A stretch of DNA of 64,000 nucleotides from Candidatus Moraniibacteriota bacterium (GTDB lineage Bacteria > Patescibacteriota > Minisyncoccia > Moranbacterales > UBA2206): assembly GCA_049303795.1 (NCBI GenBank), contig JBAQNM010000007.1, forward strand, positions 13,665 through 77,664, in the 5' to 3' direction. The notes under the pieces are model-generated. The model ran no database searches. It had not been told where the DNA came from and saw nothing but the letters and a program-made list of their open reading frames with translations. Positions 29,643 through 62,247 of this stretch are shown one piece after another (position 1 is the stretch's first letter; each line of letters starts with the position of its first letter). The translations under genes and the position numbers were made by a program.

Positions 29643-30494
29643 TTATGAAGGAAATATTTCTTCTTTGTTATGCACCTCCCCAACCTCGCTCAGGAATTCT
29701 TTGATTATTTTTGGATCATTTTGAATTGGAGTGGAAATGTTCCAAAGTATATTAAATTGGTTTTTTAGTAGTTGACGAAGCTCTTTGCTTTCAACGATAA
29801 AACCAAAATTCTCGGCCTTGGAAGACATAAACATCACTTTATTGCCATAAGCCCAATATCCCATAGAAAATTCAACCCCAGCAGGGGCGATTCGCACTTC
29901 GCGTTTCACTTCCTTGCCCGGTGCCAAAAATATGTTTTTTTCTATATTTTCTGATTTATCCAGTGGCCAGACTACTTTTATATAGATATTGCTACGAATT
30001 CTTTTCTTATTTAGTTCATGTAAAAATTCTTCTCCAACCACTTTCATCACGTCTTTTACCGGCCAGCACAGTTCTGTTTCTAGATCATTATATAAAAGCA
30101 CATCTTTTAGCATTGTCTTTAATTCTTCTATTCCTTCAAAATAATGAAATTTTGGGCTAATAAAGTCTGTCTTTTGGGATGACTTTAGGCTTTCTAGGAC
30201 TGATTCAAAATCAGTTCGTGTGCTTTCCAGAGTGTTAATTTTTTCATTTATGATGGTCTTTATCGTTTCTGGGGCAACTGCTTGCCACATTTTCACTTTG
30301 TTTTTCTCGCTTTGTGATACTAGGCCGTGTTGGGCAAGGTTTTCGAGTAGTCCATAAAGGGTTGATCTGGGCATATTTAGACGTTTGGCGAGATTTCCCG
30401 TTGGTGAAATTCCGCTATCTAGCAGGGCTAGATATATATCAGAATGTTCTTTTTTTAAGCCAAATTTATCAAATATTCTGTATAACATAAGCAA
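29643..30494 (-). CDS. TrmB-like HTH transcriptional regulator, paralog 1 of 4
   Basis: N-terminal wHTH (EHSDIYLALLDSGISPTGNLAKRLNMPRSTLYGLLENLAQHGLV) plus a C-terminal domain of about 190 aa. It shares this architecture with ORFs 47261, 57953 and 61465. Confidence 0.6.
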   Translation of the reverse strand: MLMLYRIFDKFGLKKEHSDIYLALLDSGISPTGNLAKRLNMPRSTLYGLLENLAQHGLVSQSEKNKVKMWQAVAPETIKTIINEKINTLESTRTDFESVLESLKSSQKTDFISPKFHYFEGIEELKTMLKDVLLYNDLETELCWPVKDVMKVVGEEFLHELNKKRIRSNIYIKVVWPLDKSENIEKNIFLAPGKEVKREVRIAPAGVEFSMGYWAYGNKVMFMSSKAENFGFIVESKELRQLLKNQFNILWNISTPIQNDPKIIKEFLSEVGEVHNKEEIFPS

Positions 30495-30625
30495 ATATTA
30501 ATATTTATTTGTCGCACTCCGCCGACACTATTTACTATACTATGTTTTTGGTGTATAGTCAAGCGTTAGGATAGAAATGAGAGATGTTTGAAAACTTAAT
30601 AGTTTATTGAAAAAGGAGAAAAATC

Positions 30626-31180
30626 ATGTTAAACAATCCGTTGATTTGGTGGAATTTCGTTCTTATTCTCGGAGCTTTGGATAGGCTCATCGTGGACAGT
30701 CAATTTTCTGAAGATTTTGATTTTAATGATAAATCGATTCACGCCAAGATTGTTAGAATTAATTGGCGTTGTAGTCACCTTGTTGTGTTCTTCGCGGTAG
30801 CTTTTGCGTTAATAGTTAGTGTCTTATGGATTTTTAACGATCCAATTTTTCCAGAAACTTCATTTAATATCTATGGTTATTCAATTATTTTAGCAGGTTA
30901 TCTGTCCGCAATTCATATGGGAAGGGGGTATGCTGTTGCGAGTGTGGCGAAAGGATTAGGAAAATATCTAGATGAAAAAGTTTTGCGTGACATAGAAGAA
31001 GTCATGAGAAAGGAAAGACTTGATGCATGGCGCTCGATTCAAAGCAATAACAGTGCCGGATTTCCCGGTGATAATGGTAAACATTATGAAAAAATCAAGG
31101 GTATTGAAAAAATAACAAGACTCATAATAGAAATAAAAAAAAGAAAAGAAGAGGAGGAAAATTATGCATTTCTTTTATGA
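30626..31180 (+). CDS. Hypothetical membrane protein
   Basis: 184 aa with 3 TM helices. Divergent from the TrmB-like gene. Confidence 0.4.
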   Translation: MLNNPLIWWNFVLILGALDRLIVDSQFSEDFDFNDKSIHAKIVRINWRCSHLVVFFAVAFALIVSVLWIFNDPIFPETSFNIYGYSIILAGYLSAIHMGRGYAVASVAKGLGKYLDEKVLRDIEEVMRKERLDAWRSIQSNNSAGFPGDNGKHYEKIKGIEKITRLIIEIKKRKEEEENYAFLL

Positions 31181-31712
31181 TTACATTTATCCATTAAGTA
31201 TTTTTATTGCCGTTGTTTCGATTCTGGGAGCTCCATTTGCTAGTTTATCTATGTTTTCTGCTTTTGTATGGATTCCGGATGGAATAGATGAAATAAAATA
31301 CTACTATAAAAAATGGAGATATGATAAAGAAATAAATTATTTCGGTAAATTACTGGTAGAAATATCAAAAACATTGGTTGGATCAATACCAGTAATTGCC
31401 ACTGTAATCACAATATTTTTCGCATTTGGAGCAAATAGTTATAAGATTGACCATACACCTAGAATTCAAGGCGCTTATGCAGTAATAGTAGATGTGAAAA
31501 AATCCATCAATACTGATGAGCAAAATAAAAAAATTATTTATGAAGTTATAATCGATATCAAGAATGCTGGGAGAAAAGAAGCAACATTAATAAGAGAGTC
31601 TTGGGAAAATCCATCTATTGGTGACGAAATTCTTGTTGGGACAAAAGACGGAAATTACTACTATGAATATTTTGAAGATTGTATCATTGCCGATCCCAAT
31701 CGAAAAGAATAA
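31164..31712 (+). CDS. Hypothetical membrane-anchored protein
   Basis: 182 aa with two N-terminal TM helices. Overlaps the preceding ORF by 17 nt. Confidence 0.4.
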   Translation: MHFFYDYIYPLSIFIAVVSILGAPFASLSMFSAFVWIPDGIDEIKYYYKKWRYDKEINYFGKLLVEISKTLVGSIPVIATVITIFFAFGANSYKIDHTPRIQGAYAVIVDVKKSINTDEQNKKIIYEVIIDIKNAGRKEATLIRESWENPSIGDEILVGTKDGNYYYEYFEDCIIADPNRKE

Positions 31713-31738
31713 TTAAAAATTGTAAATGTTCGAGTTTA

Positions 31739-31779
31739 AGCCCTATGGAAATTAAATATTTCCGCGGGGCTTTTTTTAT
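31739..31779 (+). terminator. Rho-independent terminator
   Basis: Hairpin gccctatggaaat...atttccgcggggc followed by ttttttt. Confidence 0.55.
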
Positions 31780-31827
31780 AATTATTTTTAGTTTCGCGCA
31801 TTAAGGTAGGTATGCTAGAATAAACTT

Positions 31828-37152: not shown

Positions 37153-37162
37153 CCTATTTTTT

Positions 37163-46792: not shown

Positions 46793-46898
46793 TTTAAGGT
46801 TAATAAGTCCCTGATGTATTAAATGTGAATATTGGTTAGTTTAAAACAGGCTAGCAAATAATTATGGTTTTGTCTAGTTTTTGTTTAGAAAAATTTTC

Positions 46899-47005
46899 TT
46901 ATAAAACGGTAGTAGAAGCCACCTTATCTCCGGCTTGTGGTTTCATCACGCGAACACCTTGATTTGCGCGACTGAGAGAGGTCTTTTTAGTGGAATGCAA
47001 ATGAT
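46899..47005 (-). repeat. Decayed duplicate of the gyrA 3' end (last ~35 codons plus the stop). It is the direct repeat partner of 51568..51675.
   Basis: About 80% nucleotide identity to the 3' end of gyrA, beginning exactly at the TAA stop. It would translate to ..[26 protein letters not shown], versus ..[26 protein letters not shown] for genuine GyrA. Confidence 0.8.
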
Positions 47006-47260
47006 TTAGAGGTGAAAAATAAATTGATCTCAGTATTATTAATAATATTAGTATTAACTATTTTTTTGGCTTTTAGGGGGTTAATAATTTTTAAAAATAA
47101 TTATACTATTTGACTAAGATATTAAAATAATCTAAAATGACGGCATAAGTCGTCGTTTTTTATTTGGCATAATTTTGCTTAATATAAAGTATTTTTAAGT
47201 TAGTCAATATAATAAATGACGAACTGTATTGATAAATTTAATTATTAAGAGTATAGTGCT

Positions 47261-48110: not shown

Positions 48111-48431
48111 ATGAGAAGATATAAAATAGCAGAAAGACCAGATAGGCTTTTGTTATCAAGTGCTCTCTTGCTAGATACTTTTGAAAAAAGAATTACTGCT
48201 ATCGTGAGAGTGGAATATGGTTGGTTTGATATCACAGTGTCTTTAATCAGGAGAAGTAATAAAAAATTAATTATTGAAGGATATCTGGTAGGTGGGTATG
48301 TCTATGGTAGTTATGATATAGACAGGGAAAAAGAATCCACCTACATCATAACAATTGAACCTTATCCCTGGGATGAATCTTCCGGCGAGCTTAAAGAGAA
48401 AAACAAATCTTATATCGAAATCGAAGACTAA
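48111..48431 (+). CDS. Hypothetical small protein
   Basis: 106-aa ORF inside the island. No motif. Confidence 0.35.
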   Translation: MRRYKIAERPDRLLLSSALLLDTFEKRITAIVRVEYGWFDITVSLIRRSNKKLIIEGYLVGGYVYGSYDIDREKESTYIITIEPYPWDESSGELKEKNKSYIEIED

Positions 48432-48452
48432 ATTAATAAAAAGGAGATAGAA

Positions 48453-48875
48453 ATGAAAAAACTAATTAAAGTCTTGATTATTGATGAAGATCAGCGTCAA
48501 CTCGATAATTTATCTTTATTTCCTGGTTTGGAAATAAAAATAAATAGTTCTATGGAATATGGAATTAAAGAAAATTTTTCGAAATTTGATTTCATATTGA
48601 TAGGGCTGTCAAATAATTCTCTTAGTGGGTTAACGCTACTAAGAAGATTAAAAAAATTTAATTGGAGGTTTGCGCAAAAAAGACGAACTAAAAAGATAGT
48701 AATTATGAGTGAATTCGAAAAAATTGATTTCAACCTTGAGGAGTTTTATTGTCTGGTGGAAAGTTCGCTTTTTTGTTGGATGGAAAACTTTAAGTTTAAA
48801 GAAAACTACTATTTTTCTAAAGGCGACTTGAGAAAACCCTATAATGGAGTCTTGAGCTCCTTGCTTAAGTTATAA
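48453..48875 (+). CDS. Hypothetical protein, weakly receiver-domain-like
   Basis: 140 aa. KVLIIDEDQ...FDFILIGL resembles the start of a CheY-like receiver, but the motifs are incomplete. Confidence 0.3.
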   Translation: MKKLIKVLIIDEDQRQLDNLSLFPGLEIKINSSMEYGIKENFSKFDFILIGLSNNSLSGLTLLRRLKKFNWRFAQKRRTKKIVIMSEFEKIDFNLEEFYCLVESSLFCWMENFKFKENYYFSKGDLRKPYNGVLSSLLKL

Positions 48876-48885
48876 AGGAGAAAAA

Positions 48886-49101
48886 ATGAGCCAGAAAAAG
48901 ACAGAAGATTATCTTGAACTTTTAGAATTTCTTCTTCTGAAAATGGCTCATATTTCTATTGAGCCCGAAGAAGGAAGCCTCAGTCAAATTGTTGAAAGAT
49001 GTAAGAAATGTTCAGAGAAACTTAATCAAATCATTAATGCTCTTGAAGCATTAAATGGTTTTTCTTTTTTGCTTAACAAAAATATGGAGGTAGAAAAATG
49101 A
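48886..49101 (+). CDS. Small ORF (71 aa) translationally coupled (ATGA overlap) to the radical SAM gene. It is a candidate precursor or partner peptide.
   Basis: AT-rich ORF ending in ..NKNMEVEK. Its stop overlaps the ATG of ORF 49098. Confidence 0.3.
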   Translation: MSQKKTEDYLELLEFLLLKMAHISIEPEEGSLSQIVERCKKCSEKLNQIINALEALNGFSFLLNKNMEVEK

Positions 49102-50486
49102 AGGTATTAATTCTTGATCCGAGCTGGCCAGGAAAAAACGCAGTGTCTAGCGAAAAGATTGTCACTGCCTCAACGGGCGGTGCTCCCCAGCAAAATGAGG
49201 GCGCGATGTGCGTGGCTCAGGCAGCCCGCATGGCTGGTCATGAGGTGGAATATTTTCAGGCGCCGTATCACGGGTCGCCTGAAGATGTGCTGGCTAAAAT
49301 CGAAAACATTGCTGTGCTGGCATTATCACTGATGCAGTGGAACACACCTGTGGGGTTGCGATTTGCCCAAAAGGCGAAAGAGATCAATCCTATGGTAAAA
49401 GTGGCGGTGGGCGGCGTTTCACCTACATGCGTGCCCGAGCATTACTACAAAAATCCTTCAATCGATGCGGTGTTTGTCAGAGAGGGAGAAGAAATTTTTG
49501 TCAAATGGTTGAATGCGGGCATGCCCAGTGGAATTTTCAAAGCTAGTCGCGTAATCGACTGGGCAAAATATCAAGCGCCAGTTGATCAAACCATCCTCAA
49601 AAATCTGTATTTCCGAGGCCTGGCACCGGCTGGCAATGCGTGGGGATTCTATTTTACTCGAGGTTGTGCCGGTCGGTGTAAATTCTGTTGCACCCCGCAT
49701 GTTTTTCCAGGCGGAGAAATTGCAGATGATGTTTTAGGTGCTATTCGTCGGTTAATTCATCTTCGCGAACAGGGAGTTATGGGTGTGGACATCGCCAATG
49801 CCACTTTCAATGATAACCCTACTCTTGTAAGATATTTCTGCGAAAGCCTCATTTCGTCTGGGCTGAAGATGCCATGGACAGCTATGTGTGGCACGCACGG
49901 TGTCGACTTTGATATTTATTCATTAATGGCCAAGGCTGGCTGTTTCAAAGTTGGCTTCGGCATTGAAAATGCGACCCAACAAGGTCGCAAAAAGCTCGGT
50001 AAAAGAGGTTTTGCATCAGATAAATGTCATGACAGTGTTTATGCAGCACATGACGCCGGGTTACTTATCAGAGGATTTTTAATGATAGGTTCACTGGAGG
50101 ATGACGAGCAAACAATTGATTCTGTCAAAGAGTTATTAACAATGTTACCCATTGATGATCCGCGATTGGCGTTTATCACACCATTCGCCGGAACTACGTT
50201 CCACAAGCAGATGGTATATAGTGGACAAATCATCGACGATGATTGGAGTCATTATACTACCAATCGACCCGTCATTGGCACCGAAGATCGAGTCATGGAA
50301 CTTATAACTATGCAGCGGGAGATTATTCACTGGTTTTGGGCAGAGGGGCCTGGGCGATCGCAGATGATCAAACGTCTTTATAATGACCCTACAGCTTGGG
50401 TTTCGCGTTATCATCGATTTCTCACCAGAGACATAATTCCAAATGGATTTTTACGACCGGAAGAAGTTCCAAGTGAAATTTTGTAA
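49098..50486 (+). CDS. B12-binding-domain radical SAM enzyme
   Basis: N-terminal Rossmann-like cobalamin-binding-type region (KVLILDPSWPG...VAVGGVSPT). It is followed by the rSAM cluster motif GCAGRCKFCC (Cx3Cx2C) and a TIM-barrel-like core. The GC content is visibly higher than the surrounding genes. Confidence 0.8.
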   Translation: MKVLILDPSWPGKNAVSSEKIVTASTGGAPQQNEGAMCVAQAARMAGHEVEYFQAPYHGSPEDVLAKIENIAVLALSLMQWNTPVGLRFAQKAKEINPMVKVAVGGVSPTCVPEHYYKNPSIDAVFVREGEEIFVKWLNAGMPSGIFKASRVIDWAKYQAPVDQTILKNLYFRGLAPAGNAWGFYFTRGCAGRCKFCCTPHVFPGGEIADDVLGAIRRLIHLREQGVMGVDIANATFNDNPTLVRYFCESLISSGLKMPWTAMCGTHGVDFDIYSLMAKAGCFKVGFGIENATQQGRKKLGKRGFASDKCHDSVYAAHDAGLLIRGFLMIGSLEDDEQTIDSVKELLTMLPIDDPRLAFITPFAGTTFHKQMVYSGQIIDDDWSHYTTNRPVIGTEDRVMELITMQREIIHWFWAEGPGRSQMIKRLYNDPTAWVSRYHRFLTRDIIPNGFLRPEEVPSEIL

Positions 50487-50538
50487 GATTATTTTGAGAA
50501 AAATATAGTAGGCTATATATTTTAAAAGGAGACACGTC

Positions 50539-51480
50539 ATGAATGAAATTATCAGGCTTCATATTTTTCCTAGAGTAAGTTGGACATGGGACGAGTTTGT
50601 TGCAAAAACTCCTAAAAATTCAATTGCTTTGGACGGCATGGTCAAAGGAGGACCACGTTTTGACGAAGAAACAAGGCATATAAATTTTGACCATCACGAT
50701 GGAGTTATTCGTGAAGCCACTATGAGTACTGCTATGCAAGTTTTCATGGCAATAAAAGGCGGCTTAATGCAATCCTTTCGAGAAAACGGGCATCCTTCTG
50801 CTAATGTTTATATCAATGATACCGATCAAGATACAACATTAGCTGTTTGGCTATTAGGCAAATATCATCTTTTTGAAGGAACGCAAAGCTATCCATTAAT
50901 AAGCCGTTTGCTTTTTTTGGAAGACAAATGGGATATTACTGGAGGCGCCTTTCCAATTAGCCTAAGCGATAACCTTGTTTGCCAGCATGCCTGGATTTTC
51001 TATCCATATACATGCTTAAGAAAATCTGGGAAGTTAGCCAGTGCGGATGAAAATGTTCTCCGAGATAATATCGAAGCAAGCATAAAAAGGCTTGATGATT
51101 ATTTTATTGGAAAGGCAGGAGAAGAAGAAATAGATATACGGCACGAAATACTTTATGATTCTGCTAATTTTAAAATCATAAAAGAAATCGGCGGCGATGC
51201 CAGGCAATTTCTTTTTGGAAAAGGGCTGAATGCTTTTATAAGTCTTGTAACTGTTAGAGAAGATGGCCGATTCGTATGGAGCATTGGCAGGCGTTCAAAA
51301 TTCATACCTTTTCCTGTTCCACAACTATATATTGATTTTAATGAAGCGGAAGGTCTAACTGCTTTAAATGGCTGGGGCGGATCAGATATAGTGGGTGGTT
51401 CATCTCGGGAATTCGGCAGTAAGCTGATGTGGGAAAAACTTGCAGAAATTACCGAGAAGAGATTGAAAATAATTATGTAA
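50539..51480 (+). CDS. Hypothetical protein of intermediate GC content
   Basis: 313-aa ORF with no recognised motif. Last gene of the gyrA-flanked island. Confidence 0.45.
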   Translation: MNEIIRLHIFPRVSWTWDEFVAKTPKNSIALDGMVKGGPRFDEETRHINFDHHDGVIREATMSTAMQVFMAIKGGLMQSFRENGHPSANVYINDTDQDTTLAVWLLGKYHLFEGTQSYPLISRLLFLEDKWDITGGAFPISLSDNLVCQHAWIFYPYTCLRKSGKLASADENVLRDNIEASIKRLDDYFIGKAGEEEIDIRHEILYDSANFKIIKEIGGDARQFLFGKGLNAFISLVTVREDGRFVWSIGRRSKFIPFPVPQLYIDFNEAEGLTALNGWGGSDIVGGSSREFGSKLMWEKLAEITEKRLKIIM

Positions 51481-51552: not shown

Positions 51553-51567
51553 ATTTATTTAAGATTT

Positions 51568-54012
51568 TTATAAAACCGCAGTAGCAGCCACTTTATCTCC
51601 GGCTTGTGGCTTCATTACACGAACACCTTGAGTAGCGCGACCGAGAGAAGATATACTTTTCAAAGGAATGCGAATAATTTGACCTTTTTCAGAAGTAAGA
51701 ATCAGGTCAGCTTCCAGATTATCGATATTGATAATATTAGCACCAACTAATTTACCGGTTTTTGTAGTGATGGAAGCGGTTTTTATTCCGGAACCACCTC
51801 GCTTTTGGATTTTGTAATATTTAATATCAGATCTTTTTCCATAACCATTCTCAGTAATAACTAATAGTTGATTGCCTTTTTGTCCCTTAAAAAGGACATC
51901 CATTCCAACAACCAGGTCGTCTTTTTTTAGTTTTATACCGCGAACACCAGTAGCAGCGCGTCCCATTGAGCGAACATCGCTTTCCTTGAAGTGGATTGCT
52001 TGACCTTGTGAGGTCGATACAACTACTTCGTCTGTTCCAGTTGTTGCGCTAACCCAGCGGAGAGCATCACCCTTATCAAGTTTAATTGCAATAAGTCCGG
52101 AGCGTCTGACATTTTCAAATTCTTCCAGAGTAGTTTTTTTGACAGTTCCCATTTCAGTTGCCATGAAAAGATATTTATAACTATCATCTTTATTGAAGGC
52201 AATAATAGCAGTGACTTTTTCTTCTTGTGAAAGTTGTAGGAAGTTTACAATTGATTGTCCTTTGGAAATACGGGATGATTCAGGCAATTCGAAAGCTTTA
52301 GTTTGGAAAACTTTTCCGTTGTTAGTAAAGAATAAGAGATTATCATGGGTCATAACGCCGAGTAGTTTTTCAATTTCATCACCTTCTTTAGTTGATGCTC
52401 CAATTACACCTTTTCCTCCACGCTTCTGAACTTTATAAACAGTTGGGTTCATTCTTTTAATATAACCTTCTTTGGAAATAGTGATGATGGCTTCTTCGTC
52501 AGGAATCAAATCTTCTTGACGAAATTCTGTTAGGCCTGATTTAATGATTTTTGTGCGACGTTCATCACCAAACTTTTCTTTAACACGATTTAATTCGTCC
52601 TTGACGATAGCTAGAATTTTCTTTACGCTTTTTAGGATAGCTTCAAGTTCAGCGATTAATTTTAATTTTTCCGCTAGTTCGTCTTCAATTTTCTTTTGTT
52701 CGAGTCCGGCAAGGGTTTGCAATTTCATTTCCAAAATAGCGGTTGTTTGACGATCCGAGAGTTTGAATTTTTTCATCAAATTAACATGCGCTTCTTCTTT
52801 TGTTTTGGATTTTTTGATGGTTTCAATTACGGCGTCAATATAATCCAGCGCTTTTTTTAGACCTTCTAGGATATGAGCGCGATCCTGAGCTTTTTCAAGA
52901 TCAAAACGTGTTTTACGAGTGATCACTTCTTTTCTGTGAGCGATATAATATTCAAAAATTGCTTTTAAATTAAGCACGGTTGGCTCAATTCCATCAACCA
53001 ATGCTAGCATATTAACACCAAAATTCTTTTGAAGATCAGTTAATTCATATAGTTTATTGAGGACTTTTTGTGGATAAGCGTCTTTTTTAAGATCGATTAC
53101 AAGGCGAACTCCATCTTTATCAGATTCATCACGAATATCACGAATACCAACAATTTTTCCTTCTTTCACAAGGTCAGCCATTCTTTCAATCATGGTAGAT
53201 TTGTTGGTGGCATAGGTCATTTCAGTGACAATAATTTGAAAAGCGCCAGCTTTATTTTCATGAATGTCGGCTTTGGCGCGAGTTAGGATTTTTCCACGAC
53301 CAGTTTTATAGGCTTCAACAATATCTTTTTTATTATAAATAATTCCTCCAGTAGGAAAGTCTGGACCTTTTACGAATTCACATAGATCGTCAACTGTAGC
53401 ATCAGGATTGTCAATAAGATGACTAATACCTTCAATTAATTCAAATAAATTGTGTGGAGGAATATTAGTCGCCATACCAACGGCGATTCCCATTGATCCG
53501 TTGAGAAGTAGCTGAGGAAGATTAGATGGGAGAACAGTTGGTTCTTTATGCTGTCCATCAAAGTTGGGTACAAAATCGACAGTATTTTTTTCAATATCAG
53601 TGAGCATTTCTTCAGCAATACTAGAAAGTTTTGCTTCAGTATAACGATAAGCAGCTGCGCTGTCTCCGTCCATCGATCCAAAGTTTCCTTGACCTTTAAC
53701 TAGGGGATAGCGTAAGGAAAAGTCTTGAGCCATACGTACCATAGAGTCATAAACAGCTACATCTCCGTGGGGGTGATATTTTCCCAAAACCTCTCCAACT
53801 ACTGTGGCAGATTTTCGAAATTTGGCATTAGCACGCAGTCCTGTGTTCCACATCGAATAAAGAATACGGCGATGAACTGGTTTCATGCCATCACGCACAT
53901 CAGGAAGAGCACGCGCAACAATCACGCTCATGGCATAATCCAAATAGGATTGTTGAATTTCTTCAGTTATTTCACGGGGCTGAATATTTTCCAGCTCAAT
54001 TTTCATTTCCAT
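51568..54012 (-). CDS. gyrA: DNA gyrase subunit A
   Basis: The QRDR-region block [26 protein letters not shown], the active-site Tyr region AAAYRYTE, and C-terminal beta-pinwheel repeats. 814 aa. Confidence 0.95.
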
Positions 54013-55406: not shown

Positions 55407-56909
55407 ATGCTTTCTAAAATCCCAAAATATATAATAGGCACAATTCAAAGTCTTAATGAGGCTGGCTTTGAAGCGTTTGTGGTGGGTGGTTGCGTGCGAG
55501 ATTTGATGATGAAAAATCCCGAGTACTCGGGACCAAAGGACTGGGACATTGCAACAAATGCGAAACCGGAAGATCTTTTGAAAATCTTTCCGGACGGGAA
55601 ATATGAAAATAATTTTGGAACAGTGATGTTGCCATTAAAATATACCAATGGCGTTTCTGAGGAAGATTGGAATGGGCCGAATGTGGAAATCACAACATAT
55701 CGCATTGAATCTAAATATTCTGATAAGCGTCATCCGGATGAGGTGAAATTTGCGAAAACTTTGAAAGAGGATTTGAGTCGAAGAGATTTTACGGTGAATG
55801 CGATGGCGATAAAAATCAATAAACAGGAGTCAGAAAATAAATTTGAAATAATTGATCTTTTTGGTGGACAAGAAGATTTAAAGAATAAAAAAATTAGAGC
55901 GGTGGGGGAAGCGGAGGAAAGATTTGATGAGGATGCACTTCGCATGATGCGAGCAATTCGTTTCTCAGTGCAACTTGGTTTTGAGATTGAAGAAAAAACT
56001 TTTCTGGCAATTAAGAAAAATTCCAAAAACTTAAAATTTATTTCGGGGGAAAGAATTCGCGATGAGTTTAATAAGATTATACTTTCAAATAATCCGAGCA
56101 AAGGAGCGGAGCTTTTAGTAGAAAGCAAATTAATGGATGAATTTATTCCCGAGATAATTGCGACTATCGGTGTGAAACAAAATCGTCATCATTATTTTGG
56201 GCCATATAATACCGTCTATGCTCATTTATTGGCAAGTCTGGAAAAATGTCCATCTGAAAAATTGGAAGTGCGTTTGGCATCATTTCTGCATGACCTGGGA
56301 AAACCAAAATCAAAAAGAGGAGAAGGGGAGATGTCAACTTTCTATAGTCATGAATATATCGGCGCAAAAATGGTGGAGAACATTTTGGAGCGAATGAAAT
56401 ACCCACGAAAAGTTATTGATAAAACTGTGATGCTCGTCAAGAATCACATGTTCTATTATAACGTCGATGAAGTGGGCGAATCAGGAGTGCGTCGCGTGGT
56501 GCAAAAAGTGGGAGTGGAAAATATTAACGATTTAATTGACGTGCGAGTTGCTGATCGACTTGGATCTGGCGTTGCCAAAGCGGTGCCATATAAACTTCGC
56601 CATTTCAAATTCATGGTGGAAAAAGTATCAAGCGATGCTATTTCAGTCAAACAGCTAAGAATTAATGGCAATGATTTAATAGCCGAACTCAAAATCCAAC
56701 CCGGACCAAAAATCGGGGCGATTTTGGATGTGCTTCTGGCAGAGGTGATTGACGACCAAACTCTAAACGAAAAAGAAAAACTTTTGAAACTAGCCAAAGA
56801 CTTAGACAAAAAAGATCTCGCCGAACTCCGTGCGTTTGCTAAGCAAAAAATTGAGAAAGAAAAAAAGGAAGAGGAGGAATTGATGAAGAAGAAATATTGG
56901 GTGGAATAG
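55407..56909 (+). CDS. cca: CCA-adding tRNA nucleotidyltransferase (class II, with HD domain)
   Basis: FVVGGCVRDLMM...DWDIAT NTase head, then RDFTVNAMA, followed by the HD phosphohydrolase region (HHYF...FLHDLGK). Confidence 0.88.
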   Translation: MLSKIPKYIIGTIQSLNEAGFEAFVVGGCVRDLMMKNPEYSGPKDWDIATNAKPEDLLKIFPDGKYENNFGTVMLPLKYTNGVSEEDWNGPNVEITTYRIESKYSDKRHPDEVKFAKTLKEDLSRRDFTVNAMAIKINKQESENKFEIIDLFGGQEDLKNKKIRAVGEAEERFDEDALRMMRAIRFSVQLGFEIEEKTFLAIKKNSKNLKFISGERIRDEFNKIILSNNPSKGAELLVESKLMDEFIPEIIATIGVKQNRHHYFGPYNTVYAHLLASLEKCPSEKLEVRLASFLHDLGKPKSKRGEGEMSTFYSHEYIGAKMVENILERMKYPRKVIDKTVMLVKNHMFYYNVDEVGESGVRRVVQKVGVENINDLIDVRVADRLGSGVAKAVPYKLRHFKFMVEKVSSDAISVKQLRINGNDLIAELKIQPGPKIGAILDVLLAEVIDDQTLNEKEKLLKLAKDLDKKDLAELRAFAKQKIEKEKKEEEELMKKKYWVE

Positions 56910-56977: not shown

Positions 56978-57766
56978 TTATTTGCGTGCAATTAACACTG
57001 CGTAGGGAAAATAAAAAGTTATTCCCCTGTTGCTTTTTTCAATTTTCCATTTTTCTTTAACTTTTCCTGGAAGTCGTTGATAGAAATTATTAATTTCTGC
57101 GCTTCCCTCGGCATTAATTTCGGTTGTTGCGGAATAAGTAATCCAACCATCATAATCAAAAGGATTTTGAATATCCTTAAAGCCAGATTCTTCAAGTAAG
57201 TTCAAGTGGTCATTTTTAGTTGGAAAATGCCGTTTCATTTTTCCCGCATTTCCAGCAAGCCTATCTTTCAAATTTACAAGTTCATCGAAATATTTAGTCG
57301 TATCTTTTTCAGAGCAAGCAGCAATTAAAACGAACAAGCCATCATTTTTTAGCAATCGATAAACTTCTTTGATAGCGTCTGGCTGGGCTTTTTTTGGTAG
57401 ATCATGTAGCGCTCCACGCAAGAAAATTCTGTCAAAAGTATTTTCAGGCAGGCCAGTTTTTCTAATATCAGATAAAATTTTTGAGCCAGGCGTCTTGATT
57501 TGATTTAACATGGCTTGAGAAAAATCCGTGAATGATATTTTTGATATTTTCCCAAGTGTTTTTAACTCCTTATTAAGAGTTTCGCCGATTTTGCCTGTGC
57601 CACACATTGCATCTAATATCTCAGATTTTGGTGGCAATGATTTAAGGTTTGAGTATTTTAGAATTTTTGGTATTAAATCATCACGACGCAAACCAGCATA
57701 CTCCTTACAATTCCAACGATGAGAAATTTTATCATATCTCCTAAGTAGACCCTCGTTTGTTTTCAT
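56978..57766 (-). CDS. Class I SAM-dependent methyltransferase
   Basis: The SAM-binding motif I is ILDAMCGTGKIG, with acidic motif II and motif III following. Confidence 0.7.
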   Translation of the reverse strand: MKTNEGLLRRYDKISHRWNCKEYAGLRRDDLIPKILKYSNLKSLPPKSEILDAMCGTGKIGETLNKELKTLGKISKISFTDFSQAMLNQIKTPGSKILSDIRKTGLPENTFDRIFLRGALHDLPKKAQPDAIKEVYRLLKNDGLFVLIAACSEKDTTKYFDELVNLKDRLAGNAGKMKRHFPTKNDHLNLLEESGFKDIQNPFDYDGWITYSATTEINAEGSAEINNFYQRLPGKVKEKWKIEKSNRGITFYFPYAVLIARK

Positions 57767-57952
57767 AGCTAGTCATCCTTTTTTAAATTTTTAAGAAGCA
57801 CTCATTTTGATCATAACTAATAAGTATAAATGTTTTTTTAATAACGTCAATAAATAAGGATAATAATTTTATTTATTAATAAGGATTGACTTAATTTAAG
57901 CCATATAGTATGCTATTTTTGACGACCAAAATTATCGACATAATATAAAACA

Positions 57953-58696
57953 ATGGAAATATTAGAGGAAAAATTAAAGCTTTTAGGGTTAAATGAAAAA
58001 GAAGCCATAATATATCGGGCGATATTACAAGGGAAAAAAGCAACAATCATAGATCTTGCCAAAGCGACAGGGACAAAGAGAACGACAGTTTATCATTGTT
58101 TAGATGCTTTAGTGGAAAAAAGTTTGGTGAATAGGGTCATGAAAGATGGGCATAAATATTATTATGCTGAAGATCCAGAGGAGAGTTTAAAATTAATACT
58201 CAAGGAAAAAGAGGATGTGATTAAGAAATTAATTCCTGATTTGAAATCTATATTCGGCACAAATCTTTATCAGCCGGAAATTGAGATATATAGAAATATA
58301 AATGGAATCCGAAAAATCTTAGAAGACATACTTAGTGTTAAAGAGTCAGTAGTTAGATATTACTTATCTGAATATAATGTGGAAGACATGGCTGGAGCGG
58401 ATTTTGTAGATGAATTTGTAAAAAAAAGAATTGCCTCAGGAGTGAAAAGCTTGGCGCTTCGATCATTTAAGTATAAGCCTGAAAGGGAGAAGATTTCAAC
58501 GCATGCTAAGCAGCTTCGAGAGGTGCGCTTCGTTCCGGAAAATATAATTATCAAACCATATATTTGTATTTATGATGATAAGGTGACAATGATTTCCACA
58601 AAAGAAGAAAAGCTGGGCTTTATAATTAAGTCGCATGAATTTGCCGAAGCACAAAAAGCGATTTTTGATATGATTTGGAATGGGGTGGCTATATAA
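57953..58696 (+). CDS. TrmB-like HTH transcriptional regulator, paralog 3 of 4
   Basis: wHTH LNEKEAIIYRAILQGKKATIIDLAKATGTKRTTVYHCLDALVEKSLV plus a C-terminal domain. Confidence 0.6.
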   Translation: MEILEEKLKLLGLNEKEAIIYRAILQGKKATIIDLAKATGTKRTTVYHCLDALVEKSLVNRVMKDGHKYYYAEDPEESLKLILKEKEDVIKKLIPDLKSIFGTNLYQPEIEIYRNINGIRKILEDILSVKESVVRYYLSEYNVEDMAGADFVDEFVKKRIASGVKSLALRSFKYKPEREKISTHAKQLREVRFVPENIIIKPYICIYDDKVTMISTKEEKLGFIIKSHEFAEAQKAIFDMIWNGVAI

Positions 58697-58719
58697 TAAA
58701 ATTAAGTACATTTTTATTA

Positions 58720-58778
58720 TTGCTAAGCAAAAAATTGAGAAAGAGGAGTTGATGAAGAAAAAGTATTAGGTGGAGTAG
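58720..58778 (+). repeat. Decayed duplicate of the cca 3' end (copy 2 of 3)
   Basis: ttgctaagcaaaaaattgagaaagaggagttgatgaagaaaaagtattaggtggagtag aligns to the last ~60 nt of cca, with a premature in-frame stop. Confidence 0.7.
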
Positions 58779-58851: not shown

Positions 58852-59985
58852 ATGAATTACATCCCAAGATTAATAGAAAAACAAATAAAAGAGCGCTTAT
58901 TTAAGGGTAAACTGGTTATTTTGTATGGAGCCAGGCAAGTTGGGAAAACCACATTAGCCAAAAAAATATTGGCAGATTATGGCGAAGATGGCACATATTT
59001 TAATTGCGAGCTGTTGTCTGTTCAAAAAGGTCTAGCTGAGCCGGAAGCGGAAAAACTGAAAAAATTTCTGGGAAATTATAAAATTATTCTGTTGGATGAG
59101 GCACAAAACATTCCTAATATTGGAAAAATTTTGAAAATTATTGTTGACACCTATCCTGAAATACAAATTATTGCCACGGGCTCGTCTAGCTTTGACTTGG
59201 CGCAAAAAATTTCCGAACCAATGACGGGTAGGACTTTTACTTTTATGCTTTATCCTATTTCACTTCAAGAAATTAATCAAAAAGAAGACTTACTTTCCAT
59301 AGAAGCTAAGTTGGAAAATTTTTTAAGATTTGGAAATTATCCGGAAATTCTTTTTTTGGGAGAAGCTGAATCCATTGAGAGGCTGCAGGAGATTTCTTCT
59401 AAATATTTATATAAAGACATTTTGAGTTTTGAGGGCTTGAAAAAATCAAGTCTCGTCAAAAATTTGTTAGAGCTGCTAGCTCTCCAACTAGGCAATGAAG
59501 TTTCTTATAATGAATTGGCGGTTAATTTAGGAGTTGATCGACTCACGGTGCAAAAATATATTGATATATTAGAGCAGGCTTTTGTGATTTTCAAACTGAA
59601 TGCTTTTTCGCGAAATTTGCGCAAAGAAATTTCTAAATCAATCAAAGTATATTTTTATGATCTGGGGATTAGAAATAGTCTGATTGAAAATTATAACCCG
59701 CTAGACATCCGAAATGATGTCGGGGCGCTTTGGGAAAACTTTTGTATTCTAGAAAGAAAAAAGAATAATGATGCGGAGTTTAATTTTGTCAACTCATATT
59801 TTTGGCGGACTTATGATCAAAAAGAAATTGATTATATTGAAGAAAGCGGAGGGAAAATTCGCGGATTTGAATTCAAATGGAATGAAAAAAAGAAATTTAA
59901 GGTTCCAAAAGAGTTTATTGAGAAATATGGTGCTACGGTGGAAAAAATTGATAGGAGCAACTATTGGAAGTTTTTGAATCTATAA
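58852..59985 (+). CDS. AAA-family ATPase with C-terminal DUF4143 domain (AAA_14/DUF4143 architecture)
   Basis: Walker A LYGARQVGKTTLAK and Walker B ILLDEAQ, then the long C-terminal domain typical of the DUF4143 family. Confidence 0.78.
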   Translation: MNYIPRLIEKQIKERLFKGKLVILYGARQVGKTTLAKKILADYGEDGTYFNCELLSVQKGLAEPEAEKLKKFLGNYKIILLDEAQNIPNIGKILKIIVDTYPEIQIIATGSSSFDLAQKISEPMTGRTFTFMLYPISLQEINQKEDLLSIEAKLENFLRFGNYPEILFLGEAESIERLQEISSKYLYKDILSFEGLKKSSLVKNLLELLALQLGNEVSYNELAVNLGVDRLTVQKYIDILEQAFVIFKLNAFSRNLRKEISKSIKVYFYDLGIRNSLIENYNPLDIRNDVGALWENFCILERKKNNDAEFNFVNSYFWRTYDQKEIDYIEESGGKIRGFEFKWNEKKKFKVPKEFIEKYGATVEKIDRSNYWKFLNL

Positions 59986-60079
59986 AAGATCTCGCCGAAC
60001 TTTGCGCTTTTTCTAAGCAAAAAATTGAGGAATAAAAGAGAAGGAAGAGTTGATGAAGAAAAAGTATTGGGTGGAATAA
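59984..60079 (+). repeat. Decayed duplicate of the cca 3' end (copy 3 of 3), followed by a terminator-like hairpin
   Basis: aaaagatctcgccgaactttgcgctttttctaagcaaaaaattgagg...gatgaagaaaaagtattgggtggaataa aligns to the last ~100 nt of cca. It is followed by the hairpin aaaaggcagtgatcagg/gatcgactgcctttt. Confidence 0.75.
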
Positions 60080-60156
60080 AATATTTTTTGGACAAATAAA
60101 AAAGGCAGTGATCAGGTTTGATCGACTGCCTTTTACGATTTAGAGGCATAATGGTT

Positions 60157-60561
60157 TTAAGGAGCAGGGAAATGTGGGCTGTATAATGGTCCCACGAAAG
60201 AACCGTTTGCTTTAAGAATATAATCGACAGCATCGTCTTCATTTATAAATCTTTCACAAAACCATACATGAGCAGTATTGGGTATTCTTGGGTCAGTGTT
60301 TTCGGCGCAGATTTGGCAGGCTGCTACGTTCACCCCATTCTCCTTAAAACCAACAACAAGAGGTGTTGTGCCAATAAGAAATTTTGATAAACTTTCCCCT
60401 CTAAATTTAATATAAATCTCTTCTCCCAAATTCTTTGGATCTAAAACCCAGTCAGGACAATAAAGCATAGAATTATCTTCTGTTTTATCCCTAATCTCTT
60501 GTTTGGGATTCTTAGTTTTAGAAAAACACAATTTTTCTAAAAGATTACGTACGTTTTCCAT
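60157..60561 (-). CDS. Hypothetical protein
   Basis: 134-aa Cys-containing ORF (CPDW..CQIC..WFCE). It shares a near-identical 5' leader with the next gene. Confidence 0.4.
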   Translation of the reverse strand: MENVRNLLEKLCFSKTKNPKQEIRDKTEDNSMLYCPDWVLDPKNLGEEIYIKFRGESLSKFLIGTTPLVVGFKENGVNVAACQICAENTDPRIPNTAHVWFCERFINEDDAVDYILKANGSFVGPLYSPHFPAP

Positions 60562-60630
60562 TTTTCTACTCCTTTACTTAATTTTCACTAGGCTCGTTAT
60601 TTATTCTCGCGAGCCTTTTGCGAGGCTTGA

Positions 60631-61137
60631 TTATTTATCGGCAAGATAAATGTAGTGGCCTAATCTTTTTAGGTCATCATCATGATTTACATCTACGAAG
60701 CCACTTTTCATTAAATCTGATTGTAGCTTGGCAAGAAGTTTGAATTCTTCTTTGGAGGGATGAGAAATGATTTCCTCAATTTCCTTGGGTTTCATTATGG
60801 TTCCTGCCCAAAAAAATCCTTGGTCATGTCTTGTCTTAAACTGACCGCCACAAATATTTTTCTCCCCAAAAATTTTCCCACTTTCAAGTAAAGCTAATAC
60901 CTGCCTTGCGCAACGAAGTTTGTAGATATTATATAAAGCCCCATCTTTTTCAATTCCAGCATTTCCGAGGGCTTCTCTTACCCTATACCAATCGCCTTCC
61001 TCCAGCCTCCATTCAGCAACGAATAAATATGCGGAAGAGTCCATACCCTCTTCATCGACCATTTTTAGCAGAGCAATAATTCCTTCCACTGTTTTTTTCC
61101 AATCCATGGTTTCTACCAGTTTTTTAATTTTTTCCAT
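60631..61137 (-). CDS. Hypothetical protein
   Basis: 168-aa ORF. It is preceded by a palindromic leader and is divergent from the TrmB-like paralog 4. Confidence 0.4.
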   Translation of the reverse strand: MEKIKKLVETMDWKKTVEGIIALLKMVDEEGMDSSAYLFVAEWRLEEGDWYRVREALGNAGIEKDGALYNIYKLRCARQVLALLESGKIFGEKNICGGQFKTRHDQGFFWAGTIMKPKEIEEIISHPSKEEFKLLAKLQSDLMKSGFVDVNHDDDLKRLGHYIYLADK

Positions 61138-61218
61138 TTTTCTCTCCTTTGCCTAATTTTCATTAGGCTAAAATTTTTTCGCCAGTGTAGCTCTCGATCA
61201 ATTCGCCTAATTGCGAAC
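61138..61218 (-). promoter_or_regulatory. Operator-like palindromes in the leader/divergent control region
   Basis: gcctaatTTTCattaggc (61151-61168) and ttcgcctaattgcgaa (61203-61218). The first, together with the RBS, is duplicated upstream of ORF 60157..60561 at 60562-60597. Confidence 0.4.
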
Positions 61219-61464
61219 CCGTGCCTTTGTGATTTATTTAGTTTTTAATGAACCTGCTAAGTTTCCAATTGGACTATCCAAATTTTCAGCTTAACAAAAT
61301 AGTATACATCAAAAATAGTAAAATGTCAAAACTTATGGTCAAAAAAATATATAGCATTTTTATCTAAAGATAATAATGCTTTAAAAATAGGCTATATTGA
61401 CAAATTAAGCTAGTTTGATATAATGTAAATGTTGACGATAATGGTGGTCATATAATAAAATATC

Positions 61465-62247
61465 ATGGAAATTAAGGAAGTTTTGGAAAAATTTGGGCTA
61501 AAGGGGAGAAAAGCGGATGTTTATCTGGCGACTTTGGAATTGGGAAGTGCCAGCGTGATTGAAATAGCTAAAAAAGCCCAGATTAAAAGAACTACTTGCT
61601 ATAATGTGCTGTTGGATCTTATCGACGAAGGCTTGATTTCGCAGATAACCAAAGGGAAAAGAAAATTATTTATTGGTGAAGACCCAAAAAAAATAATGGA
61701 GGAAATAAAGAATAAAGAGAGACTATTTTCTGAAATTTTGCCTCAACTCCAGTCCATTCACAATATCAAGACGGGTAAGCCAAAAATGCGCTATTTTGAA
61801 GGAAAAGAAGGGATAAGAGAAGTGCGCGAAGACACATTAATGCATGGTGGAAAAGAAATATTAGCCATATATTCATATGATATTATAGATATTCTCGGCA
61901 AAGAATTTACGGATAATTATATTAAAAAAAGAATCCAAAAAGGATTTCATGTTAGAACAATTGCTCCGGATGATGATGAGATGATAAAAAATTACACAAC
62001 CAAGGATCAAGAACAATTGAGGAGCACAAAACTTATCAGTGCCAAGGATTTTCCTTTTTCAATCGAAATCCTTATTTATGGCAATAATTATGTGGCGCTA
62101 ATTTCCGCCAAGGAAGAAATAGGACTGATTATAGAAGGCTCAGAAATTCACAAAACCATGAAACTTATTTTCGAGCTGATTTGGAAGTTGTTACCGGAAA
62201 TAAAAGTGAAAGAAAGATATTTGTCAGTGAGCAAGGAGGAAAAATAG
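61465..62247 (+). CDS. TrmB-like HTH transcriptional regulator, paralog 4 of 4
   Basis: wHTH KGRKADVYLATLELGSASVIEIAKKAQIKRTTCYNVLLDLIDEGLI plus a C-terminal domain. Confidence 0.6.
   Translation: MEIKEVLEKFGLKGRKADVYLATLELGSASVIEIAKKAQIKRTTCYNVLLDLIDEGLISQITKGKRKLFIGEDPKKIMEEIKNKERLFSEILPQLQSIHNIKTGKPKMRYFEGKEGIREVREDTLMHGGKEILAIYSYDIIDILGKEFTDNYIKKRIQKGFHVRTIAPDDDEMIKNYTTKDQEQLRSTKLISAKDFPFSIEILIYGNNYVALISAKEEIGLIIEGSEIHKTMKLIFELIWKLLPEIKVKERYLSVSKEEK

Follow-up and report, generated by a model that had tools for sequence, protein, structure and literature searches.

TrmBL2-type regulators of Patescibacteria with predicted clade-specific operators at their own promoters and variable divergent genes

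The window (the whole 64,000-nt stretch of Candidatus Moraniibacteriota DNA that we analysed) encodes four paralogous regulators, A to D, which are probably self-regulating transcription factors of the TrmBL2 type with predicted clade-specific operators and, in clades A and D, variable divergent genes, B and C lying in segments that may have been inserted or rearranged as blocks. They would belong to a very large, Patescibacteria-specific expansion of such factors. The four genes are:

29643..30488, (-) strand: paralog A, TrmBL2-like regulator, 281 aa (Pfam TrmB, E 3.5e-11); the ORF opens at TTG 30494 (29643..30494), ATG 30488 being the probable start
47261..48046, (+) strand: paralog B (Pfam TrmB, E 5e-11)
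57953..58696, (+) strand: paralog C (Pfam TrmB, E 4e-11)
61465..62247, (+) strand: paralog D (Pfam TrmB, E 2e-11), with AF2 model and TrmBL2 fold match

The initial annotation had described these ORFs as paralogs of common architecture, and this proved correct: they align end to end with 22-32% identity across ~230-250 aa (pairwise BLASTP, E 4e-17 to 9e-38), all four match TrmB (PF01978) at residues ~7-80 above the Pfam gathering score (E 2e-11 to 5e-11), and the modelled fold is TrmBL2-like. The C-terminal domain is indeed common to all four (E 1e-8 to 1e-22 when these parts are compared alone), but its size, given as 170-190 aa, is smaller, as the AF2 model (pLDDT 87) delimits a wHTH (1-73), a long helix (74-98) and a globular C-domain of ~140 aa (~105-245). 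Foldseek searches with this model returned TrmBL2 (5bpd, E 7e-14) and TrmB (E 2e-8) as best matches, the C-domain additionally matching PLD-fold proteins; a PDB profile search found TrmB (3qph, E 2e-7) and, over its full length, TrmBL2 (E 1e-4), and PF11495 was not matched by A-D in Pfam. A four-paralog profile run against all stop-to-stop ORFs revealed no fifth copy in the window (next match E 0.5). Each protein thus combines the TrmB winged helix with a helix for dimerisation and a PLD-like, non-catalytic C-domain, the last presumably sensing a ligand or mediating oligomerisation.

TrmBL2 of Thermococcales (TK0471/PF0496; PDB 5bpd/5box/5bqt), which gave both the best fold match and a full-length profile match, is of like length (264 aa versus ~250-280 aa), has the same order of TrmB wHTH, long helix and C-terminal domain without a sugar-binding subdomain, and has the recognition-helix tyrosine in common with the paralogs (PMC4158304). 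However, sequence identity is only ~17%, and the paralogs are bacterial, occur many per genome and carry a conserved, specific inverted repeat at their own promoter, whereas the archaeal TrmBL2, an abundant chromatin protein, represses globally and occupies coding as well as intergenic DNA with no defined motif (PMC4158304, PMC3031468). Since TrmBL2 binds DNA without sequence specificity, a specific operator would not be expected from this nearest structural relative. The sugar-sensing TrmB/TrmBL1 (Tgr) of Thermococcales likewise have the PF01978 wHTH, and the first part of the TrmB effector domain is alignable with the paralogs (3qph residues 6-154). TrmBL1/Tgr repress with an inverted repeat (the TGM operator, TATCAC-N5-GTGATA) just past the core promoter and over the start site, with autoregulation proposed (PMC4158304), and the paralog boxes are predicted in a similar position. 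In contrast to TrmB/TrmBL1, the paralogs are 80-90 aa shorter, without the sugar-binding C-terminal subdomain and without a link to sugar metabolism genes, and their boxes differ in sequence and spacing and accompany bacterial sigma70-type promoters.

The family comprises 2,805 clusters (50% identity, E<=1e-30), with 131 full-length members within 1.29 Mb of related loci. Each of A, B, C and D forms its own orthologous clade, with 50-92% identity across Patescibacteria compared to 22-32% between paralogs: A orthologs are 66-92% identical (A itself being identical to P0121 from an NCBI Candidatus Moraniibacteriota MAG), B orthologs 56-92%, C orthologs in loci L090 and L091 62-65%, and ~37 D orthologs 48-67% (57-68% in one comparison). 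These four separate, conserved groups do not fit the idea that regulator copies had spread with cargo; the paralogs are ancient, vertically inherited regulators and not mobile-element genes.

At all four paralogs, 0-8 nt past the -10 hexamer of the gene's own sigma70-like promoter, there begins an inverted repeat, TGWCG-N8-CGWCA (N11 in C), which would therefore cover the transcription start. The position of this box is constant relative to the -10, the distance to the start codon varying from 19 to 302 nt, and each clade retains its own variant. The window holds six boxes versus 1.47 expected, and the promoters of A, B and D account for three of them; across related loci totalling 1.35 Mb, 36/37 exact matches are situated in front of a family gene, and a perfect box precedes 46/135 family genes (34%, single pattern) compared to 23/966 control genes. 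The promoters are consensus matches only, of a kind not enriched in this AT-rich DNA, and because the TTGACG/TTGACA half-site resembles a -35 hexamer, the conservation could partly reflect promoter sequence. A predicted operator of each paralog on its own promoter, specific to its clade, is newly described here, and autorepression is likely: each paralog would bind its box and repress its own promoter, and the half-site and spacing differences between clades would insulate the paralogs from one another. Operator palindromes before the cargo genes, which the initial annotation had suggested looking for, are present at own and divergent promoters, but a pattern search of the window found none before the radical SAM, 541-aa or ATPase genes described below.

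The D locus has a box on each of two divergent promoters:

60157..61137, (-) strand: two orphan genes, 134 and 168 aa, divergent from D
61301..61341, (-) strand: divergent promoter TTGACA-17-TATACT (61329-61301) together with O2
61324-61341: second box O2, TGTCAAAACTTATGGTCA, overlying the -35 of the divergent promoter
61397..61424, (+) strand: D promoter-like site TTGACA-16-TATAAT, 12/12 consensus
61433..61450, no strand: D operator box O1, TGACGATAATGGTGGTCA
62335..63960, (+) strand: 541-aa orphan downstream of D

At <=1 mismatch, O1 was found in 31/36 and O2 in 30/36 D-clade loci, both being present in 30/36 at a separation of mostly 109-113 nt. The divergent slot of 28 D-clade loci contained 50 genes of 44 unrelated clusters beside a conserved regulator, both promoters and both boxes. 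The window's divergent orphans had no match in Pfam, PADLOC or PHROGs and no homolog across the other D-clade loci, and the 541-aa orphan had no match in the same three collections. As the second box lies in the divergent region, over the -35 in clade D, the regulator would also control the divergent small genes, which appear to be swapped from genome to genome. This arrangement, with a second box ~90-110 bp upstream in clade D and, outside the window, in A orthologs, resembles in logic and geometry the MarR/IclR divergons, where a dimeric wHTH repressor on palindromes in a short shared intergenic region shuts its own and the divergent gene. The paralog fold differs beyond the wHTH, and whereas classical divergons conserve target and regulator together, here regulator and operators persist through the turnover of the divergent genes between genomes.

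The A locus comprises:

30510..30527, no strand: A operator box TGTCG-N8-CGACA, perfect pattern match, 6 nt past the -10
30534..30562, (-) strand: A promoter-like site TTGACT-17-TATAGT, conserved among A orthologs
30626..31712, (+) strand: two orphan membrane-like genes, 184 and 182 aa, divergent from A (hydrophobic segments in the translations)

The A box is retained as TAGTGTCGaCGannTGCGACAAAT in four loci (L083-L086), and two TGTC-N10-GACA boxes are present in 4/4 A-ortholog loci in the intergenic region towards the divergent genes; the second box is absent at the window's A locus. The membrane-like orphans had no Pfam match, and the neighbours of the A clade were different in 5/5 genomes examined. 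A non-housekeeping cassette had been described at each paralog, and the neighbours are mostly as claimed, but A is also followed on its own strand, after 68 nt, by rpsO (ribosomal protein S15) and thus does not lie solely at an accessory-gene edge.

Around C, copies of a core gene end flank the segment:

56810..56909, (+) strand: cca 3' end, repeat copy 1
56978..57766, (-) strand: SAM-dependent methyltransferase divergent from C (Pfam Methyltransf_25/11)
57886..57914, (+) strand: C promoter-like site TTGACT-17-TATGCT
57920..57940, no strand: C operator box TGACG-N11-CGACA, 6 nt past the -10
58719..58778, (+) strand: cca 3'-end copy 2, shortened, beginning 23 nt past the C stop codon
58852..59985, (+) strand: AAA_14/DUF4143 ATPase, candidate defence gene (Pfam; PADLOC PDC-S01, E 3e-150)
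59984..60079, (+) strand: cca 3'-end copy 3 with internal stop, beginning at the ATPase stop codon (83% identity, 99 nt)

The three cca copies, also present in the independent assembly L093, enclose the methyltransferase-C segment and the ATPase. The C box is retained as TGACGACCAAAATTrTCrACA in L090 and partly in L091; the methyltransferase is again the divergent partner of C in L090 and lies nearby in L091, the pair following cca in the window versus PaaX/guanylate kinase in L090.

B is flanked by gyrA ends:

46896..47007, (-) strand: gyrA 3' end relic, stop codon included, 4-nt deletion, 81-87% identical to 51565-51680
47110..47138, (+) strand: B promoter-like site TTGACT-17-TAAAAT, conserved in L087
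47134..47159, no strand: B operator box, core 47138-47155 TGACGGCATAAGTCGTCG, extended palindrome AAAATGACG..CGTCGTTTT
48111..51480, (+) strand: genes between B and gyrA (106-aa orphan, 140-aa orphan, radical SAM, 313-aa orphan)
49098-50486, (+) strand: B12-binding radical SAM (Pfam)
50539-51480, (+) strand: 313-aa orphan
51565..51680, (-) strand: functional gyrA 3' end, direct-repeat copy 2

The 116-nt relic and the real gyrA 3' end enclose B and the radical SAM islet, within which GC rises to 0.43 at 49-51 kb versus ~0.33 nearby; the syntenic locus L087 is without the radical SAM and 313-aa genes. The B box is retained in L087, L088 and L089 as AATGACG-N6-CGTCATT, and gyrA remains a neighbour of B orthologs. 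The anticipated 3'-end duplications therefore surround B (gyrA) and C (cca), but none flanks A or D in the window. The B- and C-containing segments may have been inserted or rearranged as blocks that left these duplicated ends. Islets integrated at tRNA or protein-gene 3' ends likewise have direct repeats of the target-gene 3' end around the inserts (attL/attR), and the three consecutive cca copies resemble tandem accretion at one site; however, the B and C segments neither contain nor adjoin an integrase, and the repeats are long and diverged (73-87%). Long, diverged repeats at many target genes fit single-crossover insertion-duplication better than site-specific integration.

The idea of a regulator with variable neighbours is thus partly supported: neighbours vary in the D and A clades, but core neighbours are conserved in part in clades D, C and B. 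Its stronger form, in which the regulator and its bidirectional promoter-operator would be a portable expression platform that moves with or recruits a variable payload and enters genomes at conserved gene ends by insertion-duplication, we regard as a tentative possibility. It would accommodate the gyrA relic and cca copies that enclose B and C, the different sites of the methyltransferase-C pair, the hypervariable slot beside conserved operators and comparable duplications beside family genes elsewhere: of a ruvA 3' end in L077, of a recQ 5' end in L027 and, in L083, of a 228-nt unit that terminates in a tRNA 3' end and lies on both sides of an orphan and an A ortholog. Family genes are enclosed by 32/87 repeat pairs versus 14.5 ± 3 expected at random (~2x), or 18 versus 10.2 ± 1.9 when counted per locus; however, this enrichment drops to ~1.6-fold if repeat copies simply favour gene ends, family genes are not involved in the other 55/87 pairs, and many repeats are merely similar terminator hairpins (L090, L041, L049, L058). 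The segments have no integrase, recombinase or transposase in or beside them, no viral homologs were found in IMG/VR, the diversity of targets (cca, gyrA, ruvA, recQ, tRNA) makes one site-specific system unlikely, the conserved core neighbours of clades D, C and B and the absence of flanking duplications at A and D in the window also speak against it, and the sequences are all metagenome assemblies.

A little less probable still is that adjacency is coincidental, the family being the dominant transcription-factor family of small genomes, with targets elsewhere or global action as with TrmBL2, and the neighbouring orphans not being regulated. As orphan genes are ubiquitous in Patescibacteria, any family member would often lie beside non-housekeeping genes, and around any member there is ~1 extra copy per 26 kb (maximum 8 per 20 kb). 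That A adjoins rpsO and D orthologs lie upstream of yebC-ruvC in ~16/36 genomes, that neighbours change around highly conserved proteins, and that the nearest fold is a chromatin protein would all agree with coincidence. Against it stand the conserved second box at fixed spacing, which in clade D sits exactly on the divergent -35 and which A orthologs also have in that intergenic region, and the recurring divergent C-methyltransferase pairing; moreover, the near confinement of exact boxes to the upstream regions of family genes argues for sequence-specific local action.

It is very improbable that the box is an RNA element (a 5' hairpin or attenuator in the regulator mRNA) instead of a protein-binding operator: every box lies within the transcribed leader and the B box, taken with its flanks, can form an 11-pair stem before a T-run and is scored as terminator-like, but the D half-sites TGACG/CGACA conserve a central A-A mismatch in a 5-pair stem, which argues against a hairpin, the sequence is conserved with compensatory changes absent, spacer length and not pairing is conserved within each clade, and the same box type lies in opposite orientation over a -35 element.

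Co-variation of protein and DNA would agree with binding of the box by the regulator: among the D regulators and boxes compared, the recognition helix reads Y-N in place of Y-D only in the window and L009, and only these two have the O1 half-site GGTCA instead of CGACA. This co-variation may be a single event, as it is limited to two genomes of one deep subgroup; the variable position is equivalent to D51 in the Y50/D51 pair listed among the DNA-binding residues of TrmB (PMC4158304).

The four open reading frames to which the initial annotation had ascribed a common TrmB-like architecture are present where it placed them, and we refer to these paralogs as A to D:

29643-30488, minus strand: A
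47261-48046, plus strand: B
57953-58696, plus strand: C
61465-62247, plus strand: D

All four carry an N-terminal TrmB winged helix (Pfam PF01978; 42.7-44.0 bits versus a cutoff of 25.6) and can be aligned end to end at 22-32% pairwise identity (E 4e-17 to 9e-38), with similarity still significant when only the C-terminal halves are compared (E 1e-8 to 1e-22), which bears out the shared architecture and indicates that A to D are true but old paralogs. The NCBIfam TrmB and TrmBL1 models match only their first ~100 residues (22-31 bits versus equivalog cutoffs of 500-650), and a four-paralog profile run against the window in any reading frame uncovered no fifth copy. A, B and C are identical to proteins that NCBI lists for a Candidatus Moraniibacteriota MAG, and each paralog has a large ortholog set (clade) of its own, at 66-92% identity for A (Falkow- and Pacebacteria included), 56-92% for B (Buchanan- and Berkelbacteria included), about 62-65% for C and 57-68% for D. 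The profile of the whole family of homologous regulators retrieves 2,805 clusters (50% identity) at E<=1e-30 and 10,688 at 1e-10, and 82 related loci from other genomes (1.29 Mb) hold 131 full-length members, with a maximum of eight in 20 kb; four copies per 33 kb are thus unremarkable for this lineage. Viral homologs were not found, as tblastn confirmed none of 45 pattern matches from an IMG/VR scan. The simplest supported account is that of an expanded family of autoregulated, TrmBL2-like predicted repressors arranged as divergons. A TrmB-family regulator in an autoregulated divergon is a known kind of system; the variant seen here, in which bacterial paralogs with a chromatin-type fold would be sequence-specific and their targets swappable, appears to be new.

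The AlphaFold model of D (pLDDT 87) begins with a winged helix-turn-helix (wHTH, residues 1-73), followed by a long helix (74-98) and, from 105 to 245, by an alpha/beta domain. Foldseek ranked the TrmBL2 chains 5bpd, 5bqt and 5box first (E 7e-14 to 6e-12, 265-276 columns) and TrmB next, with TM-scores against the TrmBL2 chains of just 0.40-0.46, consistent with a differing domain orientation. A profile built from D, 38 orthologs and the other three paralogs matched TrmBL2 (5box/5bpd) over its full length (E 1e-4, covering query residues 8-241) and P. furiosus TrmB (3qph) over the first 150 residues (E 2e-7). The features of a TrmBL2-type protein, namely a wHTH, a coiled-coil helix, a single alpha/beta C-domain, a length of ~260 aa and a full-length structural match, were thus all found. 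By contrast, the sugar-sensing TrmB and TrmBL1 proteins are ~340 aa long and end in a sugar-binding effector domain, which A to D (247-281 aa) lack and for which they gave no Pfam match. TrmBL2 itself is very abundant and coats DNA in a sequence-independent, chromatin-like manner, whereas the conserved specific boxes, almost confined to family promoters (see below), would count indirectly against the same behaviour in A to D. All 42 sequences compared, A, B and C among them, have the recognition-helix tyrosine Y46 (numbered as in D), the equivalent of Y50 in P. furiosus TrmB, where Y50 and D51 are the DNA-binding residues (PMC4158304, Table 1). Directly after it, 113 of the 117 D-clade proteins have D and window D has N; A, B and C have G, D and H, respectively. 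The C-domain alone resembles the PLD fold of the SauUSI nuclease domain, PLD4 and Zucchini at fold level only (E 1e-4 to 2e-3), and we ruled out a catalytic PLD (HKD) nuclease or recombinase because the C-domain alignment contains no invariant or near-invariant histidine, as an HxK(x)4D motif would need. In some family members (P0386, P0473, P0387, P0394, P0439 and P0423; 514-1079 aa) the full unit is followed by 2-6 extra tandem PLD-like domains, indicating that the C-domain is an independent, repeatable module.

Inspection of the upstream regions revealed a good match to a sigma70-type promoter in front of each paralog, with an inverted repeat, the predicted operator or box, lying 0-8 nt beyond it:

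30510-30527: A box, TGTCGCACTCCGCCGACA
47138-47155: B box, TGACGGCATAAGTCGTCG
57920-57940: C box, TGACG-N11-CGACA
61433-61450: first D box (O1), TGACGATAATGGTGGTCA
61324-61341: second D box (O2), further upstream
61329-61301, minus strand: divergent promoter at O2

The window contains six matches to TGWCG-N8-CGWCA with at most one mismatch, versus 1.47 expected, and three of them are the promoter sites of A, B and D. In 1.35 Mb of related loci we counted 37 exact matches versus ~2 expected from base composition, and once four gene starts, mis-called or truncated, had been corrected, 36 of the 37 had a family gene beginning no more than 400 nt downstream. When spacers of 5-12 were allowed, 46 of 135 family genes had a perfect box upstream, versus 23 of 966 other genes. 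Each clade has its own version:

A clade: TAGTGTCGaCGannTGCGACAAAT
B clade: AATGACG-N6-CGTCATT
C clade: TGACGACCAAAATTrTCrACA
D clade: ATGTTGACGrwAAryrTCGACAT

A metagenome scan with the D-type box (ATGTTGACG-N7-TCGACA) gave mostly chance hits in high-GC contigs among the matches listed, 2 of 120 of which adjoin a family gene.

The position of the box relative to the -10 element is fixed, with leaders ranging from 19 to 302 nt, and the half-sites of the D clade share a conserved central mismatch that fits a protein-binding site over an RNA hairpin. Since this geometry is that of the repressing arrangement of TrmBL1/Tgr (PMC4158304), we infer that the paralogs are negatively autoregulated. Among D-clade loci, the recognition helix reads Y-N rather than Y-D only in window D and its ortholog from L009, and the same two are alone in having GGTCA for CGACA as the right half-site, their second boxes also being altered. 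In a wider homolog set, Y-N is limited to window D and four deep-branching homologs, including the L009 protein, and may therefore reflect a single evolutionary event, so that we treat the co-variation as suggestive.

Throughout the D clade the entire ~200-bp upstream region is conserved, comprising O1, the regulator promoter and, ~111 nt upstream, a second box (TGTCAATAATAAGCGTCA) whose left half forms the -35 element of a conserved divergent promoter; both boxes were detected with at most one mismatch each in 30 of 36 loci. Likewise, the divergent intergenic region holds two TGTC-N10-GACA boxes at each of the four A-ortholog loci, versus one at window A. The genes divergent from the regulator, in what we call the slot, turn over extensively: 50 slot genes from 28 D loci fell into 44 clusters (phmmer E<1e-3), a number in which homology of fast-evolving orphans could go undetected at the divergence of these loci; the slot genes nonetheless vary in number (one to four) and length (60 to 425 aa) as well. 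Almost none of them has a Pfam match. A small receiver-like orphan with a CheY-like N-terminus (MKILVIEDT...) recurs in the slot (L005, L008, L010, L020, L025, L031-L034 and L082), with weak Pfam support (E 0.012 for one relative, no match for the others); the 140-aa gene downstream of B (48453-48875) has a similar N-terminus. We also observed a motif, ttCATCGTAACA (cagcttaaca in the window, ~61284-61300), just 3' of the divergent -10 element in D- and C-clade loci (for example L002, 9670-9690), which is not a conserved start codon and persists though the genes behind it differ. A small-gene array in L001 (15491-20519) has an intergenic repeat of 70-165 nt in many copies (82-92% identity) between its genes.

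To our knowledge, next to nothing has been learnt about how transcription is controlled in Patescibacteria (CPR), organisms that cannot be cultured on their own and in which very few regulators can be recognised. Full-text literature searches on TrmB in Patescibacteria or the Candidate Phyla Radiation, and on COG1378, returned nothing relevant. The present analysis provides a concrete regulator family, a predicted operator consensus spelled out for each of four clades, a promoter arrangement from which repression is predicted and a two-operator divergon with target-gene turnover; it also shows that the TrmBL2 fold, of the archaeal chromatin type, has radiated in bacteria into apparently sequence-specific paralogs.

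The initial annotation had proposed a modular cargo system, a constant regulator with a variable payload. What stands of this is that regulator and operator region are constant beside gene turnover and that two of the four paralogs lie in blocks bounded by duplicated gene ends. The regulators do not behave as passengers of a mobile element, being vertically inherited and core-like, with partly conserved housekeeping neighbours and no recognisable mobile element; nor was there any evidence that the radical SAM, ATPase and 541-aa protein genes, the larger members of the cargo, are under their control. In 12-16 of 36 genomes, the genes after D are yebC, ruvC, one for a 7TM protein and one of ATP-grasp type, and bPH_2 and LTD/PKD genes stand on the far side of the variable slot; window D has lost this context. 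The B backbone (Wzy_C, B, then gyrA-orphan-Lactamase_B) is kept in L087, where the small genes around B differ and the radical SAM pair is absent; C retains its divergent methyltransferase in L090, with tilS-ftsH next, and in L091 has cca and a methyltransferase in its vicinity. The neighbours of A orthologs differ in all four other genomes examined. Across orthologous loci, no homology was detected among the immediate neighbours of D, A or B, and three B12-radical SAM genes near family members are related at superfamily level only or not detectably. PADLOC, PHROGs and lenient Pfam searches of the cargo genes gave the DUF4143 ATPase (PDC-S01) as the single match, the other neighbours staying orphans, and the PHROGs scan of neighbour genes yielded no meaningful match. 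In the window, the B12-binding radical SAM gene and a 313-aa orphan (49098-51480) have a GC content of 0.43 versus ~0.33 around them, and both are absent from the syntenic L087, which suggests their recent acquisition within the B-gyrA interval. Window A is directly upstream of rpsO (29263-29574) and two genes from an NYN-domain gene (28654-29151); an NYN gene also occurs near the A ortholog of L084 (3499-4011) in another arrangement, possibly by chance.

The same annotation had predicted 3'-end target duplications, which a repeat search of the window recovered as gyrA ends around the B segment and as cca ends around the segments of the methyltransferase-C pair and of the ATPase:

46896-47007: gyrA 3' relic, frameshifted, just upstream of the B promoter
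51565-51680: gyrA 3' end, real copy
56810-56909: last ~33 codons of cca
58719-58778: cca 3' copy, 23 nt past the C stop
58852-59985: AAA_14/DUF4143 ATPase (PADLOC candidate defence family PDC-S01, E 3e-150)
59984-60079: cca 3' copy, at the ATPase stop

The gyrA copies (last ~40 codons and stop codon; 116 nt, 81-87% identity) enclose B, two orphans, the B12-radical SAM gene and the 313-aa orphan. The cca repeats, which align over 99 nt (83%) and 74 nt (73%), make the methyltransferase-C pair and the ATPase separate repeat-bounded blocks; they are also present in an independent assembly (L093), and weaker cca 3' copies end two other blocks in L091. The ATPase stands alone between its two copies, like a single-gene insertion. 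Around A (28-34 kb) there are weak AT-rich direct matches only, and no boundary target duplication was found around D in the window. The 90 loci examined contain 87 direct-repeat pairs, with repeats of 45-400 nt spaced 0.6-6 kb apart, and 32 of these pairs have a complete family gene between them versus 14.5 ± 3 for random placement, or 18 versus 10.2 ± 1.9 when counted by locus, although the true enrichment is modest because repeat copies favour gene ends in general. Clear cases of a duplicated coding end are the ruvA 3' end (L077), the recQ 5' end (L027) and a regulator's own 3' end (L063). L083 adds a further clear case: 228-nt direct repeats (4635-4862 and 6860-7087, 97.8% identical) flank a 282-aa orphan and the A ortholog, each ending in a 19-nt copy of the 3' end of the adjoining tRNA (7083-7154, minus strand); their GC-rich body has no Rfam match. 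Repeats in L090, L041, L049 and L058 were rejected as target duplications, being similar terminator hairpins.

Our best guess for these structures is that circularised foreign DNA may have entered by single-crossover insertion-duplication. The long gene-end duplications around inserted blocks may reveal the means by which these genomes acquire genes with no obvious mobile-element machinery. We consider it rather doubtful that in Patescibacteria a TrmBL2-like regulator with a two-operator bidirectional promoter provides orphan genes with a conserved landing pad, new genes repeatedly entering the divergent slot or entire regulator-plus-gene blocks entering at housekeeping gene ends by recombinase-independent insertion-duplication of taken-up DNA; if true, these reduced genomes would possess a site for gene turnover that is dedicated and regulated in advance. 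A site-specific integrative island or integron-like cassette array has boundary direct repeats like those of the B, C and ATPase segments, but also a recombinase in or beside the array, which the window blocks lack, and the varied duplication targets argue against one site-specific system. No integrase or transposase domain was found in 45.7-64 kb of the window. A diversity-generating retroelement was excluded, as the gyrA-copy mismatches affect all bases and are not adenine-specific; the genes at 28-64 kb also include none with a reverse-transcriptase domain. The only recombinase at 28-64 kb is an XerC/D-like tyrosine recombinase of the Phage_integrase family (35421-36362), ~10 kb from the nearest repeat-bounded block and near a tRNA-Met/tRNA-Val pair (37082-37238) and a LysM-CHAP hydrolase. 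A further repeat of ~65 nt (44148-44213 and 44918-45019, 84% identity) lies within the Wzy_C (O-antigen ligase-like) gene.
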